From: a virus
Taxonomy: Duplodnaviria; Caudoviricetes
Direction: 5' to 3' (one strand)
Virus record (IMG/VR): IMGVR_UViG_3300034062_005355
DNA length: 64,000 nt
Shown here: piece by piece, positions 2,734 to 10,839 of the stretch
Position numbering within the stretch: the first letter of the stretch is position 1
Layout of the letters: every line of letters begins with the position of its first letter
Made by a program: the position numbers and the translations under genes
The notes under the pieces: model-generated
Seen by the model: only the letters and a program-made list of their open reading frames with translations
The model's database searches: none
Told to the model about the DNA's origin: nothing

Positions 2734-2919
2734 TTAATTAAAATTTTTATTATTTAGTTCTTTAATAGTTAAATCATTATTTTTCCAACTTTTCCAATTT
2801 TCAAAATCTTTCAAATCTTCTAATGTTTTTTCATGGACCAAAACAAACCCTTCGGGAGCGATATTAGATAATTTTAACATCGGACCTTCTTTTTTTAAAA
2901 TTTCTTTAATATTAATCAT
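2734..2919 (-). CDS. Hypothetical protein
   Basis: 61-aa ORF packed in operon with neighbours. Confidence 0.6.
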   Translation of the reverse strand: MINIKEILKKEGPMLKLSNIAPEGFVLVHEKTLEDLKDFENWKSWKNNDLTIKELNNKNFN

Positions 2920-3487
2920 TTAAAAATTTGATTACTTTTTCTTTTATTCCCGATTGTTTGATCCCTTCATTACCATTTGGAGTTAAGACAAAGTTATCCA
3001 ACCCCCAATCCTTCCAAGATTCCCCATTTTTACCCATGTTCAAATCATCAATTGAGACCCAATGAGTAATCTCAGGATGGTCATGTAGGTATTGTTTAAT
3101 TTCAATAACTCGACTCATTTCCAAATCCCATTTTGGGTTCCAAACCCAAACATCTTTATTATACCAAGTACAATTACCTAGATTTAATGTAAATGCGATA
3201 GGTTTTTTAATAATCCCTTTGGATTCATAATATTTACCCATCTCTTCAAGAGTTGCAAAATTTTTCCAATCTGATGAAACCACAATTTCTGCTCCTGTTT
3301 CTTCCAAAATTTCGTTAAGGATGTTAATCGCCTTTTGATTGAAATTATCAAAACGATATTCAAGTGGTATTTCATTCATTGAGATGGATGTATTCCGTTC
3401 ACCCCATTTTTTTTGTTTCTTATGTCGACTTCCCCATTCGGTTAATAAACAAATTACACCGTCATGATCTAAAAATATAACTTTCAT
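2912..3487 (-). CDS. HAD-superfamily protein (HAD_SAK_2 / RNA-repair-associated type)
   Basis: KVIFLDHDGV motif I, IVVSSDW motif II, WVSIDD motif IV. Confidence 0.8.
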   Translation of the reverse strand: MKVIFLDHDGVICLLTEWGSRHKKQKKWGERNTSISMNEIPLEYRFDNFNQKAINILNEILEETGAEIVVSSDWKNFATLEEMGKYYESKGIIKKPIAFTLNLGNCTWYNKDVWVWNPKWDLEMSRVIEIKQYLHDHPEITHWVSIDDLNMGKNGESWKDWGLDNFVLTPNGNEGIKQSGIKEKVIKFLND

Positions 3488-3560: not shown

Positions 3561-3785
3561 ATGACAGTAGAAAACAAAACTTGGAGGAGGGTATTCCAAG
3601 ACAATTTATCCCAACTATTTCTAATGATAGCACTATTCTTCAATCCTTTTGGGTTCGATGCTGTTCAGTATGGACTAATCTTATGGACAGGAAGTTTATG
3701 GAAAGCCAACTTTGTGTTGTATTGTGTTGCGGTAGTATTTTTTGGATTATATATCTACTTTCGCAGATTATCTAAAAAACCTTAA
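3561..3785 (+). CDS. Small membrane protein
   Basis: Two hydrophobic segments and a basic C-terminus. Confidence 0.65.
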   Translation: MTVENKTWRRVFQDNLSQLFLMIALFFNPFGFDAVQYGLILWTGSLWKANFVLYCVAVVFFGLYIYFRRLSKKP

Positions 3786-5299
3786 AGCTCACTTAATTGT
3801 CCTGATTTGAATGCCTCAAAATTCGGACCTTTTTTCAAATAAAACTGATTACCTTTTTTGTCGTAATCTAATATTCCTGCTAATCTTGCTGAGTTAAATA
3901 ACCCACTTAGTTGTCCTCTAAATGCTGATGGTATCTGCCAATTATTTTGATTTTTATGAGAATAGTATGGTTTTCCGTTAACGTCTTTTTTCTGTAGTGA
4001 ACCTATATCAACTAAAAAATCTAATTTTGTTCCTTTGTTATCTGAGTCTAAATAATCAACTAGTTTTTTAATTAATCCAGAATCTTTTCTTTTAAATGTG
4101 AATCCGTAACTACTTCTATTTGGAGTCCAAGTTGACTTTCCTCCGTGAACTAAAGACATAAATTCAGGAGATTGTTTCATTTTATCAACAACCCTCCTAG
4201 TGATTTGATAGTTTATATCTTCAGATATTTTTTTAATCTCATTATCGGTTTGGAGTTTTGGTATATTATATTCTAAGTTAAAATCTAACTTTTCAATATG
4301 TAAATCAAAGTCAAGAGTGGTATTACTATCATCCCAACTAAATCCGATACTAAGAACTAAAAGAGAGGGGTAGTTAATATCATAATTTAAAACAATCATA
4401 ACCGTATATTGGTCAACATATTCACCATCAATAGAAATGTTCATCTCCATTGCTGCGTGATTTGTCATATCATCATTAATATCTAATGGTAATAATAGAT
4501 TTGGGTTAGAATACTCAATTCCGACTGATTCTTTAGTTTTTAATTCTCCACTCACAGTATATAAACCTTCACTAAAAAGTTTTTCAAATAAATCGTATTT
4601 TGATTTAAGAACACTTTCCTCGTAATTTTTTCTAACCAGCTCAATAACTTTTGGTGCTCCAAGACTAAAAATATCTTGTTCTCTTGAGCTCATTGGAGTG
4701 TCTGTCGCGTCATACCAAGTTTCTGTATTGGGTGTTATATGTATTGCTATCTTATAAAACTTATTTGATTGGTCAAAATTCTTTAATATTATGTAATATA
4801 ATCCCTGGTTACCAATTGTATGGGTTTCAAAATAAGATGATTGACTTTCCATTGCGGTGCACCATCTTGTACCAGCACCATATTTACAAGATGCTCTATA
4901 AGTTAATGGTTTAACTATTAAAATATTCTTATCTTCAAATATTTTTTCCGCTCCTGATGCATCAAACTTATTTAATTGTGATTTTGAAGATGTGATATGT
5001 GACTGTATCGCATTTTTTAATCTATCAAGGTTGTATTGATTAATATCTTTAATTTCTAAAGATTGTTTGAATCTGTCAAAATCTTTAACAAGTTCTATCG
5101 CGTCGTCAATTTCCTCATTGGATGTGTTTGGGTGTAATTCTCGTAATACGAAATCGGCATATTTGAAATTGGTATCTGCTAAATCAGAAATACCTAAAAT
5201 AAAATCCAATGTTTCAGGATATTCTTTAAATTTATTAGAGTATTTTTTTCGTAAATCTTCTTTACGACCTTCTTTTATAAGGATTGGAGTTAATCTCAT
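3782..5299 (-). CDS. Hypothetical protein with SCxYGxxTxWCT motif (paralog of 5913..7727); likely start MRLTP at 5299
   Basis: LIVKPLTYRASCKYGAGTRWCTA; TATTTATA motif 3 nt upstream of the ATG at 5299. Confidence 0.8.
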   Translation of the reverse strand: MRLTPILIKEGRKEDLRKKYSNKFKEYPETLDFILGISDLADTNFKYADFVLRELHPNTSNEEIDDAIELVKDFDRFKQSLEIKDINQYNLDRLKNAIQSHITSSKSQLNKFDASGAEKIFEDKNILIVKPLTYRASCKYGAGTRWCTAMESQSSYFETHTIGNQGLYYIILKNFDQSNKFYKIAIHITPNTETWYDATDTPMSSREQDIFSLGAPKVIELVRKNYEESVLKSKYDLFEKLFSEGLYTVSGELKTKESVGIEYSNPNLLLPLDINDDMTNHAAMEMNISIDGEYVDQYTVMIVLNYDINYPSLLVLSIGFSWDDSNTTLDFDLHIEKLDFNLEYNIPKLQTDNEIKKISEDINYQITRRVVDKMKQSPEFMSLVHGGKSTWTPNRSSYGFTFKRKDSGLIKKLVDYLDSDNKGTKLDFLVDIGSLQKKDVNGKPYYSHKNQNNWQIPSAFRGQLSGLFNSARLAGILDYDKKGNQFYLKKGPNFEAFKSGQLSEL

Positions 5300-5321
5300 A
5301 TATATAAATATATGGGAAACA

Positions 5322-5349
5322 AAAAACCCCATCACAAGGACAGGGTTTT
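5322..5349 (-). terminator. Probable terminator downstream of ssrA
   Basis: Minus strand aaaaccctgtc-cttgt-gatggggttttt (G-U-rich stem plus U tract). Confidence 0.55.
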
Positions 5350-5359
5350 ATGTTAAATG

Positions 5360-5747
5360 TGGAGTAGCGCGGATTCGAACCGCGGTCTTCCCTACTCAAT
5401 AATAAATGACTACACGTTTAGGATAATGTTTGCTAACATTCCAAAATTCACAATTCCCTTATTTTTAAAGTGGTTCGGTTTACTGAGAACTAATCCTCCA
5501 CTTGTTTCTTTTAGGATAGAAACCACACCCTATAGAGATTTATGTTCCAAGGTTAATATCTCCCCGACCTGAATATAGTTTTGCTTACGCTACTTCTACA
5601 AGCTCATCTTGTTTTACAAGACCTAATAGAGCCATTTTGTTTAACACGTTGCCGTATAATTGTTATTACCATAGATTTAAGTGATAGGAAACATCTCACT
5701 ACGTGCCACCGATTACAGACATATGAAATCAATTGCCTTTCTACCCC
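5360..5747 (-). ncRNA. ssrA: tmRNA (one-piece, ~388 nt)
   Basis: 5' GGGGTAG pairs with 3' CTACTCC-A giving an alanyl G3.U70 acceptor stem; T-arm CGCGGTTCGAATCCGCG; internal tag ORF at 5653..5585; CCA not fully encoded. Confidence 0.92.
5585..5653 (-). other. tmRNA proteolysis-tag reading frame (A)GNVLNKMALLGLVKQDELVEVA*
   Basis: AATTATAC-GGC-AAC resembles the canonical resume context; the frame ends in TAA after an Ala codon; resume codon inferred. Confidence 0.7.
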
Positions 5748-5765
5748 ATAAATTAAAGAACTTAA

Positions 5766-5845
5766 AAATCACTTTCGCCCCCTGTATAGACTTTCGTCGG
5801 ATGTTTAAGGTCAGCCTTAACTATTAAGGGAGCCACCCGTGATTT
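5766..5845 (-). ncRNA. Unassigned structured RNA leader upstream of ssrA
   Basis: Closing stem AAATCAC/GTGATTT, stem GGGTG/CATCC, hairpins TTAAGG-CTGA-CCTTAA and GAC-GAAA-GTC, possible pseudoknot CTCCCT/AGGGGG; GC-rich within AT-rich DNA. Confidence 0.6.
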
Positions 5846-5851
5846 GTTGTA

Positions 5852-5882
5852 CAAAGGTAATAATAAATATGGAAATTCCAAA
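5852..5882 (-). promoter_or_regulatory. Bacteroidota promoter driving leader RNA plus ssrA
   Basis: Minus strand TTTG-N19-TACCTTTG; predicted start near 5845. Confidence 0.7.
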
Positions 5883-5912: not shown

Positions 5913-7727
5913 GTGATAATAATAGAAGGTAAAAAAGAAGATGTTTCAAAACGTCTAAAACAGAGGTTTGAATACGATAGTTCATTCATTGACCGTATGC
6001 TATCTGTAGACCCAACAGGGTACAAATACGTTGATTATATTGCTAAACAACTTGAAAAATTAATCCCACAACTTGCAGGACGAAAGGGTGGTCTTAATAT
6101 AACACAACAAGATGCAATCAAAGACATCTTATCAATGGTTATTCCATGGTTTCATAATAATGTTAATAGAATAACTGAAGACGATATTTGGAAAGCGGAA
6201 ACAATTTTTAGAGAACAAAATGGTATGGTACCAAATATTGAAGGGATTGCCAAATCATTTAAAGACATTGCCCAGTATGAAGATCCTGAGTTTATTAAAA
6301 CTTTGATGGATATTATTGATTCTAAAAAAACCGAAAGAGAAAAAGAAAGGGAGTTAAAGAGTCAGGCTGAGAGATTATATGAAGATGATGATGTATTGGT
6401 GATTAGACCAAAATCATATGCAGCATCATGTTATTATGGTGCAAACACAAAATGGTGTACTGCCGGTAAGGGAAGTTCGGGTTATTATGATAGGTATGCC
6501 AATAGAGGTTTGTTATATTACTTTATTAAGAAAAAAGAAAATAAGAAAATGGCCTTATACAGAAATACAGAAGATAGAACAAATGAAGTCTATAATGCCC
6601 AAGATACTGAAGTAACTGTGAATGATTTAAGAGAGACCTTCCCAAATCAAAATGATTTAATTGACGATTTAATAGGTGTTGGAGAATTTATTAAAACACT
6701 TAGAGAGTTTTCCAAAGGTAAAATTGATTCTCGTGAATTGGAAGATTCTGACGAAGCAATTCTTAAAGTTAAACCTTCAGACCCATTAGGACAAAGTACA
6801 ATTATAATTGATTTTGGAGACGATACAAAATTCTTTAAATCACTAGACATATCTGAAGACGACCAATGGTTTTTAAATGGAATAAATTCACATTATGGTA
6901 GTTATGAATTTATGGATTCATATCAAGTAGAACAAGATTTTAAAGAAGGTTATGTAGTCTATGGTGACCTCAATAAAGAAAATAAGGAAAAGTTAAAAGA
7001 AATTGCCGAATTAATATTACCAGGGGAAGAATTTGATTTGGATAACGACGAATATAGAGTTAGATTATCGGAAACATTATTAAATTTATTTGATGATGAA
7101 ATGGATTGGATTCTTGGTGATTATGTTTCCGAAAAGAATAGTGAGATGCAAACAACCGCTCAAACATCAATTGAAAAAGAAATTAATAGTTTTTTGGAAT
7201 CTATTGGGTTTGTACTTTTTAGAGATTACGACCAAATTGCAACTACCGCAGCCAATTTATTAATGTGGTCCGCAAGATTACAACTACCAAAAATAGATAT
7301 AATATCTTTATTTAATCAAATAATTGAATATTCAGGCACTAGACGACTAGGTGGTTGGTCTGAAGATTCATATGAATATCAAGATTATGATAATTTTGAT
7401 TTAGTATCTTTTAATAACTCTGTTGAACGTCAATTTGAAAAAATTTTAGAAAAACTTGATGAGGATGAAGATGCTGGTGGAGAGAAAATTAAAGAGTTTT
7501 TAGGGTTTAGAGGTAGAATTGTTAAAAAATTTGGATTAAATAAATGGAACAAATTGCCTAGTGATAAAACTGTTTCATTTAAAGTTGAAGGGTTTGACCG
7601 AGAAGAAATGAAAGTTATTATTCGTGTTGAAAAACAATATAAAGGTATGAGACAATTAAAATTGTCTGAAGAAAATTTCAATAATTTATTATATTCCCCA
7701 CAATTATTTGATTTATTTGAAGTTTAA
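5913..7727 (+). CDS. Hypothetical acidic protein with SCxYGxxTxWCT motif (paralog of 3782..5299)
   Basis: VLVIRPKSYAASCYYGANTKWCTAG; GTG start; TATTTATA at 5892-5899. Confidence 0.85.
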   Translation: MIIIEGKKEDVSKRLKQRFEYDSSFIDRMLSVDPTGYKYVDYIAKQLEKLIPQLAGRKGGLNITQQDAIKDILSMVIPWFHNNVNRITEDDIWKAETIFREQNGMVPNIEGIAKSFKDIAQYEDPEFIKTLMDIIDSKKTEREKERELKSQAERLYEDDDVLVIRPKSYAASCYYGANTKWCTAGKGSSGYYDRYANRGLLYYFIKKKENKKMALYRNTEDRTNEVYNAQDTEVTVNDLRETFPNQNDLIDDLIGVGEFIKTLREFSKGKIDSRELEDSDEAILKVKPSDPLGQSTIIIDFGDDTKFFKSLDISEDDQWFLNGINSHYGSYEFMDSYQVEQDFKEGYVVYGDLNKENKEKLKEIAELILPGEEFDLDNDEYRVRLSETLLNLFDDEMDWILGDYVSEKNSEMQTTAQTSIEKEINSFLESIGFVLFRDYDQIATTAANLLMWSARLQLPKIDIISLFNQIIEYSGTRRLGGWSEDSYEYQDYDNFDLVSFNNSVERQFEKILEKLDEDEDAGGEKIKEFLGFRGRIVKKFGLNKWNKLPSDKTVSFKVEGFDREEMKVIIRVEKQYKGMRQLKLSEENFNNLLYSPQLFDLFEV

Positions 7728-8823: not shown

Positions 8824-10839
8824 TTATCGTCCTTTCTTTTGGACCACCACATTTTCATCCACTACTTTGATGAGATAAGTTTTACCCTCAATCATCTTAC
8901 CTGTTAGAACTTCTTCAGACAATAGGTCTTCAACCTTATCTTGAATTGCTCTTTTCAATGGACGAGCTCCGTATAATTCATCATAACCAATCTTAGCAAG
9001 ATACTCAACCAATGAATCATCGTATGTGATGTTGTATTTCATGTCTACAAGACGAACTACCAACTTCTTTAATTCAATGTCTGTAATCTTTTTAATATCC
9101 TCTTGAGATAAAGAATTAAATACGATTGTATCATCAATACGATTTAAGAACTCAGGAGAAAAGAAATTCTTCATTTCTTTCATTAACATTTGTTTCTTAG
9201 CTTCTTCATTACTATATGCGTTTGAAGAGAAACCAATACCTGTTCCAAATTCTTGTAGTTTCTTAACCCCTAAATTTGATGTCAAGATAATCAAGGTATT
9301 CTTGAAGTTAATCTTACGACCTAAACTATCTGTCACATGACCATCATCCAAGATTTGAAGTAAAACAGTGAATACATCTTTGTGTGCTTTTTCCACCTCG
9401 TCAAACAAGATAACTGAATATGGTTTGTTTTTAACTTTTTCAGTTAACAATCCACCTTCTTCATAACCAACATAACCCGGAGGAGCTCCCACTAATTTAG
9501 AAATACTATGTTTCTCTTGGTATTCTGACATATCCACACGGATAAGTGAATCTTCAGAACCAAACATTTCCTTAGCCAATTGTTTTGCCAAGTATGTTTT
9601 ACCAACACCAGTAGAACCCAAGAACACGAATGAGCCAATTGGACGGTTAGGGTCTTTAATGCCCAAACGGTTTCTTTTAATAGATTTTGCAATCTTAACA
9701 ACAGCGTTGTCCTGACCAATAACTTTACCAATTAAGTTTTTGTCTAAATCTAACAATGATTTTGTGTCATCAACGCTCATTTTGTTTACAGGAATTTTGG
9801 TCATGTTTGAAACAACATCGTATACGTGTTCCAACAAGATGGTTTGTTTTTCCTTCGCCAATTGTTCTTCAAACTTAATTTTTTCTTGCTCAAGTTTTAT
9901 TAACAATTTCTTCTCCTTGTCACGAAGTTCTGCTGCTTGTTCGTAGTTTTGTTTTTTAACCACATCAATTTTTTGTTGTTTGATATCTGCAGCCTTCTTT
10001 TTAAGGTCTTCAATAACATCAGGAACTTTTAAGTCAGTTTGCATTCTTGCCCCAACCTCATCCAAGATGTCAAACGCTTTGTCAGGAAATTCACGGTCAG
10101 TGATATAACGGTCTGCCAACTTAACACAAGTTTCAATAACCTCATCACTGTAATTTACCTTGTGGAAGTTTTCGTATTTGTCACGAACATTCTTAAGGAT
10201 TTGAATTGTTTCATCAACTGATGATGGATCAACAATTACTTTTTGGAATCTACGTTCTAACGCTCCGTCTTTTTCAATGTTCTTACGGAATTCATCCAAT
10301 GTGGTTGCTCCAATACATTGAAGTTCACCACGAGAAAGTGCTGGTTTAAAGATGTTTGAACCATCCATTGAACCTGAAGAATTACCTGAACCAACCAAAG
10401 TGTGAATCTCGTCAATAAACACAATGATGTTTGGATTCGCCTGAAGTTCTTCAATAATCACTTTCATTCTTTCTTCGAATTGTCCACGGTATTTGGTACC
10501 AGCAACAACTGAAGTTAGGTCAAGGTTAACAATACGTTTGTCAATTAAGTTACGAGGACATTCCCCATTAACAATTTTAATTGCCAAACCTTCAACAAGA
10601 GCAGTTTTACCACAACCAGGTTCACCAATAATAATTGGGTTATTTTTCTTTCTACGAGATAAAATCTGAGCAATTCTCAAAATCTCTCGGTCACGACCAA
10701 TAACAGGGTCAAGTTTACCCGCCTCAGCTAATTTATTTAGGTCTCTACTGAAGTTGTCTAATACAGGTGTGTTTGAATCTGCAGATGATTTTGATTTTTT
10801 ACTCATCATTTTGTCGTCATCGTCCATTAAGTCGTTCAT
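8824..10839 (-). CDS. clpC: ClpC-like Hsp100 AAA+ ATPase lacking the N-terminal Clp-repeat domain (likely start MNDL at 10839)
   Basis: D1 GEPGCGKT/FIDEIH, UVR middle domain KKQNYEQAAELRDKEK, D2 GSTGVGKT/LFDEVEKAH, ClpP-docking IGF loop, GARPL. Confidence 0.9.
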   Translation of the reverse strand: MNDLMDDDDKMMSKKSKSSADSNTPVLDNFSRDLNKLAEAGKLDPVIGRDREILRIAQILSRRKKNNPIIIGEPGCGKTALVEGLAIKIVNGECPRNLIDKRIVNLDLTSVVAGTKYRGQFEERMKVIIEELQANPNIIVFIDEIHTLVGSGNSSGSMDGSNIFKPALSRGELQCIGATTLDEFRKNIEKDGALERRFQKVIVDPSSVDETIQILKNVRDKYENFHKVNYSDEVIETCVKLADRYITDREFPDKAFDILDEVGARMQTDLKVPDVIEDLKKKAADIKQQKIDVVKKQNYEQAAELRDKEKKLLIKLEQEKIKFEEQLAKEKQTILLEHVYDVVSNMTKIPVNKMSVDDTKSLLDLDKNLIGKVIGQDNAVVKIAKSIKRNRLGIKDPNRPIGSFVFLGSTGVGKTYLAKQLAKEMFGSEDSLIRVDMSEYQEKHSISKLVGAPPGYVGYEEGGLLTEKVKNKPYSVILFDEVEKAHKDVFTVLLQILDDGHVTDSLGRKINFKNTLIILTSNLGVKKLQEFGTGIGFSSNAYSNEEAKKQMLMKEMKNFFSPEFLNRIDDTIVFNSLSQEDIKKITDIELKKLVVRLVDMKYNITYDDSLVEYLAKIGYDELYGARPLKRAIQDKVEDLLSEEVLTGKMIEGKTYLIKVVDENVVVQKKGR

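Follow-up and report, generated by a model that had tools for sequence, protein, structure and literature searches.

Our analysis showed that the minus strand of a 64,000-nt stretch of phage DNA (hereafter the window) carries, at positions 5766-5845 and upstream of the phage's tmRNA gene, an 80-nt member of a family of small pseudoknotted RNAs. That this is a real and selected fold, read on the minus strand and belonging to a new family, is in our judgement nearly beyond doubt. Because the core of the family is kept while its neighbours change, because a tmRNA can dispense with it and because there is one copy per genome, we regard the element as probably an autonomous module rather than a regulator of tmRNA.

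The element and its transcription unit

In the window the unit runs from a promoter through the element, a conserved box (GUUCUUUAA) and the tmRNA gene to a terminator, all on the minus strand. The phage is low in GC (~30%) and encodes a terminase, a portal and a Lon-like protease. The parts of the unit, in the direction of transcription, are these:

5879..5882, minus strand: promoter -33 box TTTG, Bacteroidota type, called from the sequence and from its recurrence in relatives
5852..5859, minus strand: promoter -7 box TACCTTTG; the predicted start is ~6 nt downstream, at the first base of P0
5839..5845, minus strand: 5' strand of P0, AAAUCAC, the closing helix of the type A layout
5834..5838, minus strand: 5' strand of PK1, GGGUG
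5827..5833, minus strand: 5' strand of P2, GCUCCCU
5821..5826, minus strand: J2/3, UAAUAG, with its base 5 paired to base 2 of the P3 loop
5805..5820, minus strand: P3 hairpin, UUAAGG-CUGA-CCUUAA
5799..5803, minus strand: 3' strand of PK1, CAUCC
5789..5798, minus strand: P4 hairpin, GAC-GAAA-GUC, a variable outer hairpin
5784..5788, minus strand: J4/2, UAUAC, whose C covaries, in the U-type, with the third and fourth pairs of PK1
5777..5783, minus strand: 3' strand of P2, AGGGGGC
5773..5776, minus strand: linker GAAA, of which GAA is found in all members collected
5766..5772, minus strand: 3' strand of P0, GUGAUUU
5753..5761, minus strand: conserved box GUUCUUUAA (GUUCUUUGA in relatives), between element and tmRNA
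5357..5747, minus strand: tmRNA gene, Rfam RF00023, 54.8 bits, E = 9e-19
5323..5349, minus strand: terminator-like hairpin and T run, closing the element-tmRNA unit

The two promoter boxes of the window (TTTG at 5882-5879 and TACCTTTG at 5859-5852) are separated by 19 nt. The corresponding TTTG-N19-TAnnTTTG layout, which we take to be the -33/-7 promoter type of Bacteroidota, is present in 33 of 117 distinct contexts with its end 13–15 nt upstream of PK1, where chance would give about one. The promoter therefore sits at a fixed distance from PK1, which places the predicted start at or beside the first base of P0, in agreement with the start near 5845 that the original prediction had put at the first base of the closing stem; the element would then make up the first 80 nt of the tmRNA precursor. 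In four relatives (L019, L025, L037 and L043) the word GTTCTTTGA, also part of the conserved box, forms the -33 region of promoters.

ARAGORN, run on the window, did not detect the tmRNA at 5357-5747, even though the Rfam model scores it at 54.8 bits. The tmRNAs of related phages encode tags of ~21 residues ending in ...EEVTVA or ...EEVVVA, and the conserved sequence GUUCUUUGA(A/U)AAUAU immediately precedes G1 of phage tmRNAs, whether the element is there or not (5748-5761, minus strand, in the window; 10750-10765, minus strand, in L064).

The protein gene adjoining the unit (5913-7727, 604 aa) is on the opposite, plus strand. A plus-strand reading, in which the element would be the 5' UTR of this divergent gene, was considered and rejected: the conserved G.U and U.G pairs would become A.C mismatches, and all relatives are co-oriented with their neighbours. 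A match of the plus strand to the DUF2815-RNA model (14.9 bits, E = 3) is noise. The two large ORFs flanking the tmRNA unit (3782-5335, minus strand; 5913-7727, plus strand) both match the uncharacterised phage families phrog_17056 and phrog_28193 and, from these matches, look like diverged paralogues. Another ORF, 2 kb downstream of the tmRNA and on the same strand (2912-3487, minus), has a HAD_SAK_2 domain (E = 1e-19), the domain of the 'Swiss army knife' RNA repair proteins.

Core fold, layouts and extent of the family

All the helices that the original prediction had named (P0, PK1, P2, P3 and P4) are present where it had placed them on the minus strand. P0 pairs 5845-5839 with 5772-5766 and PK1 pairs 5838-5834 with 5803-5799; the helix predicted as 6 bp of CTCCCT/AGGGGG, here P2, is present but one pair longer (GCUCCCU/AGGGGGC, 5833-5827 with 5783-5777). 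PK1 and P2 cross, which makes the fold a true pseudoknot whichever of the two helices is called the knot. Folded as a single sequence the element reaches -25.1 kcal/mol (z = -2.55, with three of 200 shuffles as good), only modestly above chance, and the case therefore rests on relatives.

The relatives were aligned as 49 close members, from which the covariance model R1 was built, and as a set of 96 diverse members (A2). Among the close relatives P0 and P4 covary, with changes on both sides in six of the seven P0 pairs and covariation in all three pairs of P4. P0 varies from 5 to 13 bp in relatives, with wholly different sequences, and P4 is variable in length and loop, so that its GNRA cap, correctly seen in the window, is not a conserved feature (GUAA, GCAA, GUAU and 5-nt loops occur in relatives). 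In the 96 diverse members all six pairs of P3 change on both sides, the first pair of PK1 is GC in 28, AU in 26, GU in 26, CG in four and UA in three sequences, and the first pair of P2 is GC in 64, AU in 20 and GU in 10. Paired cells amount to 98.8% in this alignment, whose fitting to the covariance model favours the model's pairs, compared with 89.9% in shuffles and at most 60.5% with the partners slid; none of 500 shuffles reached its covariation score. Every helix is thus supported by compensatory changes in relatives, the very check by homologs and covariation that had been proposed for it.

Two wobble pairs, G.U in PK1 and U.G in P2, recur in 94 of 95 sequences. Base 5 of J2/3 and base 2 of the P3 loop also make a long-range Watson-Crick pair across A2 (AU in 51, GC in 22, CG in 19, unpaired in three); bridged by a single invariant G, this pair would add a small pseudoknot spanning P3. 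As read from the alignments, the conserved core is a set of three mutually crossing helices (PK1, P2 and P3) plus one covarying long-range tertiary pair. The members were collected by exact-match patterns, and the apparent invariance of many positions is in part an ascertainment effect.

Family members measure ~65–110 nt and come in two layouts. In type A, the layout seen in the window, P0 (5–13 bp) joins a 5' strand to the 3' end and P4 is a local hairpin; type B is without P0, and the strand after PK1 pairs instead with the strand after GAA (helix X). A second variant of J2/3 contains an inserted hairpin and goes together with a CGUA loop on P3. A further subclass of seven distinct members, the U-type, has AUAU in J4/2 instead of AUAC, the C of the other members having been demanded by the search patterns. 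U-type members always carry G.G plus A-U in PK1 where others carry U-A plus G.U, and one member with A-U in PK1 has AUAA in J4/2. The whole PK1 helix of the U-type is swapped for a different sequence, and P3 covaries within the subclass. This suggests that the J4/2 base contacts PK1, and the coordinated C-to-U change and altered PK1 look like a tertiary contact or a specificity switch rather than a catalytic residue.

The family comprises at least about 165 viral contigs of IMG/VR with at least 99 distinct cores. An exact 18-mer across P2, J2/3 and P3 occurs in 73 IMG/VR contigs; a pattern covering the 3' half only yielded four additional members there, one restricted to PK1, P2 and J4/2 yielded more than 119 stretches among the matches listed, with at least 62 further distinct versions, and one for a non-C J4/2 gave ten more matches. 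Gathering by exact patterns under-samples the diversity of the family. The covariance model R1 recovers all members at 20–114 bits. The member contigs, mostly from freshwater and including jumbo phages of 180–310 kb, span 31–64% GC, and the hosts are therefore not only Bacteroidota.

When compared with Rfam 15, as the original prediction had advised, the window element matched no family even at E<=10, the best match being to an unrelated snoRNA model, which scored 15.7 bits where the cut-off is 45. From a type B/type 2 member came only noise, and scans of 45 loci at gathering thresholds found tRNA, tmRNA and GOLLD alone. The tmRNA region and three element types had no blastn match in 50,697 GenBank phage records. 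An exact 27-mer had no match in 185,579 species genomes, in which a looser pattern picked out one 4-kb contig of a Flavobacterium MAG, probably phage DNA, and the covariance model had no hit in another 150 genomes of Flavobacteriales. Searches of the literature by core sequence words and by topic brought up no published description; about 8,500 unnamed RNA candidates catalogued from IMG/VR may include the present family (PMC10690425). Going by these searches, the family is phage-restricted and previously uncatalogued. We infer the host solely from the promoter type and the one MAG contig. In lake metatranscriptomes, relatives' copies of the element are covered by contigs at depths of 8–55, and these contigs, which may reflect DNA carry-over and reveal no RNA ends, are a weak sign that the element is present as RNA.

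Genomic settings and putative role

The element is always co-oriented with its neighbours, on the sense strand. About 30 versions fit the tmRNA-leader context, and a tmRNA was confirmed next to the element in the window and in L033, L059, L073, L074, L136, L149 and L157. Six loci carry the element within a one-piece tmRNA gene, at the place of PK2. In tRNA clusters (L084, L141, L169, L103, L152, L192 and L193) it occupies a spacer, starting 3–5 nt past the upstream tRNA and ending 10–20 nt before the next, and one spacer per array carries it, in arrays of up to ~25 tRNAs. A phage tRNA cluster near the element in L079 includes a tRNA (9664-9738) with anticodon UUA, which would read the UAA stop. 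In a further context a promoter is followed by the element, then tRNAs and, further downstream, a GOLLD RNA. GOLLD genes (RF02032, 284–319 bits) were seen in six loci, downstream of element and tRNAs on the same strand:

L031, 3684-4088: GOLLD
L040, 3974-4389: GOLLD
L054, 1998-2418: GOLLD
L055, 7008-7433: GOLLD
L064, 9607-10019: GOLLD
L086, 5714-6118: GOLLD

More than 20 versions are found 4–8 nt past the stop codon of an ORF and 10–25 nt ahead of an intrinsic terminator. In the three such cases tested the ORF encodes the large subunit of ribonucleotide reductase, and class I, class I with an intein and class II enzymes all precede the element. The class I large subunit of L118 (3119-6628, 1169 aa) has an intein with a LAGLIDADG domain, and the element follows its stop codon just as in the intein-free homologues. 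Other copies lie between small unrelated or unknown ORFs, 16–41 nt before the next start. Across the contexts of the family, no protein gene recurred as a conserved neighbour.

Nine records of large phages (182–311 kb, five of them at least 93% complete) hold one copy each in eight cases and two in the ninth, with no additional copies at E<=5. The exception is a 294-kb phage with a C-type copy of type A and a U-type copy of type B, 13.5 kb apart (L177 1501-1562, that is G002 237222-237283; and L173, G002 223683-223769). The window's own tmRNA contains no second match to the model. A phage with the element elsewhere has a tmRNA leader of its own without it, and the tmRNA therefore does not need the element.

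The original prediction had offered a cis-regulatory RNA, a processing element for pre-tmRNA or a separate small RNA. The last of these fits best, while a role tied specifically to pre-tmRNA finds no support, as the same core is present after reductase genes, between tRNAs, inside tmRNAs and between unrelated ORFs. The same core in unrelated transcribed places, once per genome, points to a self-contained module whose job is independent of its neighbour.

To our knowledge, small RNAs this dense in pseudoknots and conserved junctions have so far nearly always proved to be either ribozymes or specific binders of a ligand or protein. The reading that we favour, if tentatively, is a putative recognition or binding RNA that hitch-hikes on abundant transcripts. 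RNase P cuts at G1 of tmRNA during tmRNA maturation, and such a cut would detach the element as a leader RNA of ~100 nt with a base-paired 5' end. More generally, the element would ride on strongly expressed, naturally processed transcripts and would need only to be made and then freed or displayed: release could come from RNase P, from tRNA 3' processing or from a terminator, and display could take place within tmRNA. The knotted core would most likely bind a protein or a small ligand, either in trans or as a tag on the carrier RNA, and the C-type and U-type, which coexist in one genome, may be two specificities. A recognition or binding RNA agrees with the copies inside tmRNA, with one copy per genome and with the linked C/U switch, and the location inside mature tmRNA fits a non-destructive module. 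We see a small chance that the family is a single-copy, trans-acting phage RNA aptamer or decoy, which would bind a host factor to disarm or divert it, or would act as a sink for a nucleotide signal. If so, it would be an RNA counterpart of the phage protein 'sponges' that act against host defence, and the C-type and U-type of the 294-kb phage would be two specificities in the manner of purine riboswitches, which a single C/U change switches between guanine and adenine.

Small self-cleaving ribozymes just as typically show highly conserved junctions, conserved wobbles, differing outer layouts and a scatter of contexts. A candidate new class of these, HDV-like in layout and cutting at or near its 5' edge, is the main rival, possible though on balance unlikely; it would form the 3' ends of upstream tRNAs and mRNAs and produce a 5'-OH leader before tmRNA. 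The helix order is that of HDV-like ribozymes, junction bases and two wobble pairs are conserved, and scattered contexts with low copy number are typical of the bacterial twister and hammerhead ribozymes. Type B has nothing upstream in the fold and begins 3–5 nt past a tRNA or 4–8 nt past a stop codon, and its sharp 5' edge at tRNA 3' ends recalls theta ribozymes (PMC10879173). Yet the defining HDV features are missing, the C of J4/2 is replaced by U in a selected subclass, and in type A the putative cleavage site would fall inside a continuous P0-PK1 stack with no unpaired base. Cutting would also split the one-piece tmRNA in six loci, no more than one spacer is occupied in arrays of up to ~25 tRNAs, and, as a weak sign, one relative has an RNA contig that runs intact across the 5' edge. 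A passive stability element, a candidate xrRNA-like block to exoribonucleases or 5'-end-dependent decay that would shape the ends of carrier RNAs, is improbable: the fully base-paired 5' end of the type A primary transcript, the replacement of a tmRNA pseudoknot and the position in 3' UTRs before terminators would suit it, but a plain hairpin would serve equally, the strict conservation of junctions, wobbles and the tertiary pair across very different phages exceeds the needs of a roadblock, and one copy per genome leaves all other transcripts unprotected. We know of no bacterial precedent for such an element.

The box GUUCUUUGA, which we take to resemble boxA of rRNA leaders and spacers, raises the idea of a candidate cis-acting antitermination element working with the box across tRNA, tmRNA and GOLLD genes or across the post-reductase terminator. 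The spacing from the element to the box downstream of it is constant in 32 of 117 contexts, where about one would be expected, an enrichment seen in tmRNA leaders; the element itself comes right after the promoters of non-coding operons and, in the reductase context, just upstream of terminators. At the same time, the box precedes one tmRNA without the element, and another tmRNA has neither. In 13 Flavobacteriaceae genomes, many of them MAGs that may lack rRNA operons, the box was no commoner than a reversed control and none of 30 occurrences lay upstream of a 16S/23S start. The box before a tmRNA without element and the lack of an association with rRNA keep the antitermination idea weak; moreover, copies inside tmRNA or 16–40 nt before ordinary ORF starts do not fit it, and a constitutive antiterminator directly before a terminator would render that terminator pointless, and we give this reading little chance. 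Hardly any credence is due to a bistable, riboswitch-like regulator of tmRNA expression, as originally suggested. The core is as ornate as an aptamer, and in the window UUAAGG can indeed pair with either of two CCUUAA copies, but in relatives the alternative pairing lacks covariation (84.8% paired against 84.7% in shuffles, with its covariation score reached by 191 of 500) and is broken in 18–31 sequences, wherever P3 has changed. On this comparison, the bistable fold is not maintained and the alternative pairing is a by-product of the P3 sequence in the window's subgroup. Riboswitches combine an aptamer and a platform of mutually exclusive pairings with coherent regulated genes; here no expression platform is conserved, terminators downstream of type B copies show neither a conserved complementarity to the element nor a conserved overlap with an antiterminator, and the neighbours are unrelated, with no consistent gene association.

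Whether as a new self-cleaving ribozyme class or as a new kind of phage-made recognition RNA, the family would be an addition to known RNAs, because it is abundant in environmental phages and absent from Rfam and from the cultured-phage records searched. Its ride on tmRNA, tRNA arrays, GOLLD operons and reductase mRNAs is a natural experiment on the expression and release of a small RNA. Covariation already fixes the secondary structure and part of the tertiary structure, and the compact, very stable-looking fold with its interchangeable closing helices could serve as a scaffold.

Comparison with known systems

The original prediction had likened the order of helices to HDV-like ribozymes while finding their conserved core absent, and both halves hold: covariation confirms the order, and the defining features are not there. 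With HDV-like and theta ribozymes (PMC10879173; structures in PMC13635239) the family shares the strand order P1-P2-P3-P3'-P1'-P4-P4'-P2' of a nested double pseudoknot. Small size, a short extra pairing involving the P3 loop and, in most members of the present family, a conserved C in J4/2 are likewise held in common with HDV-like ribozymes. Theta ribozymes are also phage-encoded and often abut tRNA 3' ends, those of gut phages adjoining phage tRNAs (PMC10879173). The catalytic J4/2 C of HDV-like ribozymes is invariant and a C-to-U change is inactive (PMC13635239, PMC10879173), whereas the present family has U in seven distinct members and A in one, and this subclass, in which the C-to-U change is a covarying one, speaks against a catalytic cytosine of the HDV type. 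The two-bp P1.1 of HDV is absent here, with 0–2 nt between the 3' strand of PK1 and P4 or helix X, and the P3 loop pairs with J2/3 rather than forming P1.1. P3 measures 6–7 bp and follows a conserved 6-nt P2-P3 joint, or a joint with an extra hairpin, whereas in HDV-like ribozymes P3 is 3 bp directly after P2. The first P1 pair can be any Watson-Crick or wobble pair and not only the G.U of the HDV cleavage site, and in type A the upstream sequence contributes to one more helix, which closes the fold. There is one copy per genome instead of the one per tRNA of theta ribozymes, and no Rfam HDV model matches the family.

Antitermination leaders of the rrn/nut type have a hairpin beside a boxA that is identical to the one in the host's rRNA leaders. 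Phage antitermination RNAs are simpler than the present family: the boxB of lambda nut is a small hairpin and the HK022 put RNA consists of two simple stem-loops. The present element resembles them as a promoter-proximal structured RNA in phage operons, adjoining here a boxA-like box, and differs in that most of its contexts are not promoter-proximal. The species 1 and 2 RNAs of T4 are small stable RNAs embedded in the phage tRNA cluster; like them, the element is a non-tRNA RNA co-transcribed with phage tRNAs and possibly released by tRNA-processing enzymes, but the present family is also found in mRNA 3' regions and in tmRNA. GOLLD and ROOL are similarly phage-borne, ornate and adjacent to tRNAs, yet they are multimer-forming RNAs of 400–800 nt with a different fold, compared with a single domain of 80 nt. 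Finally, six loci have the element in place of PK2 in a one-piece tmRNA that is normal in other respects, and the element is, like PK2, a domain that is pseudoknotted and folds independently. Its complexity and sequence conservation go far beyond those of tmRNA pseudoknots, however, and most members lie outside tmRNA, the element of the window itself being upstream of tmRNA G1.
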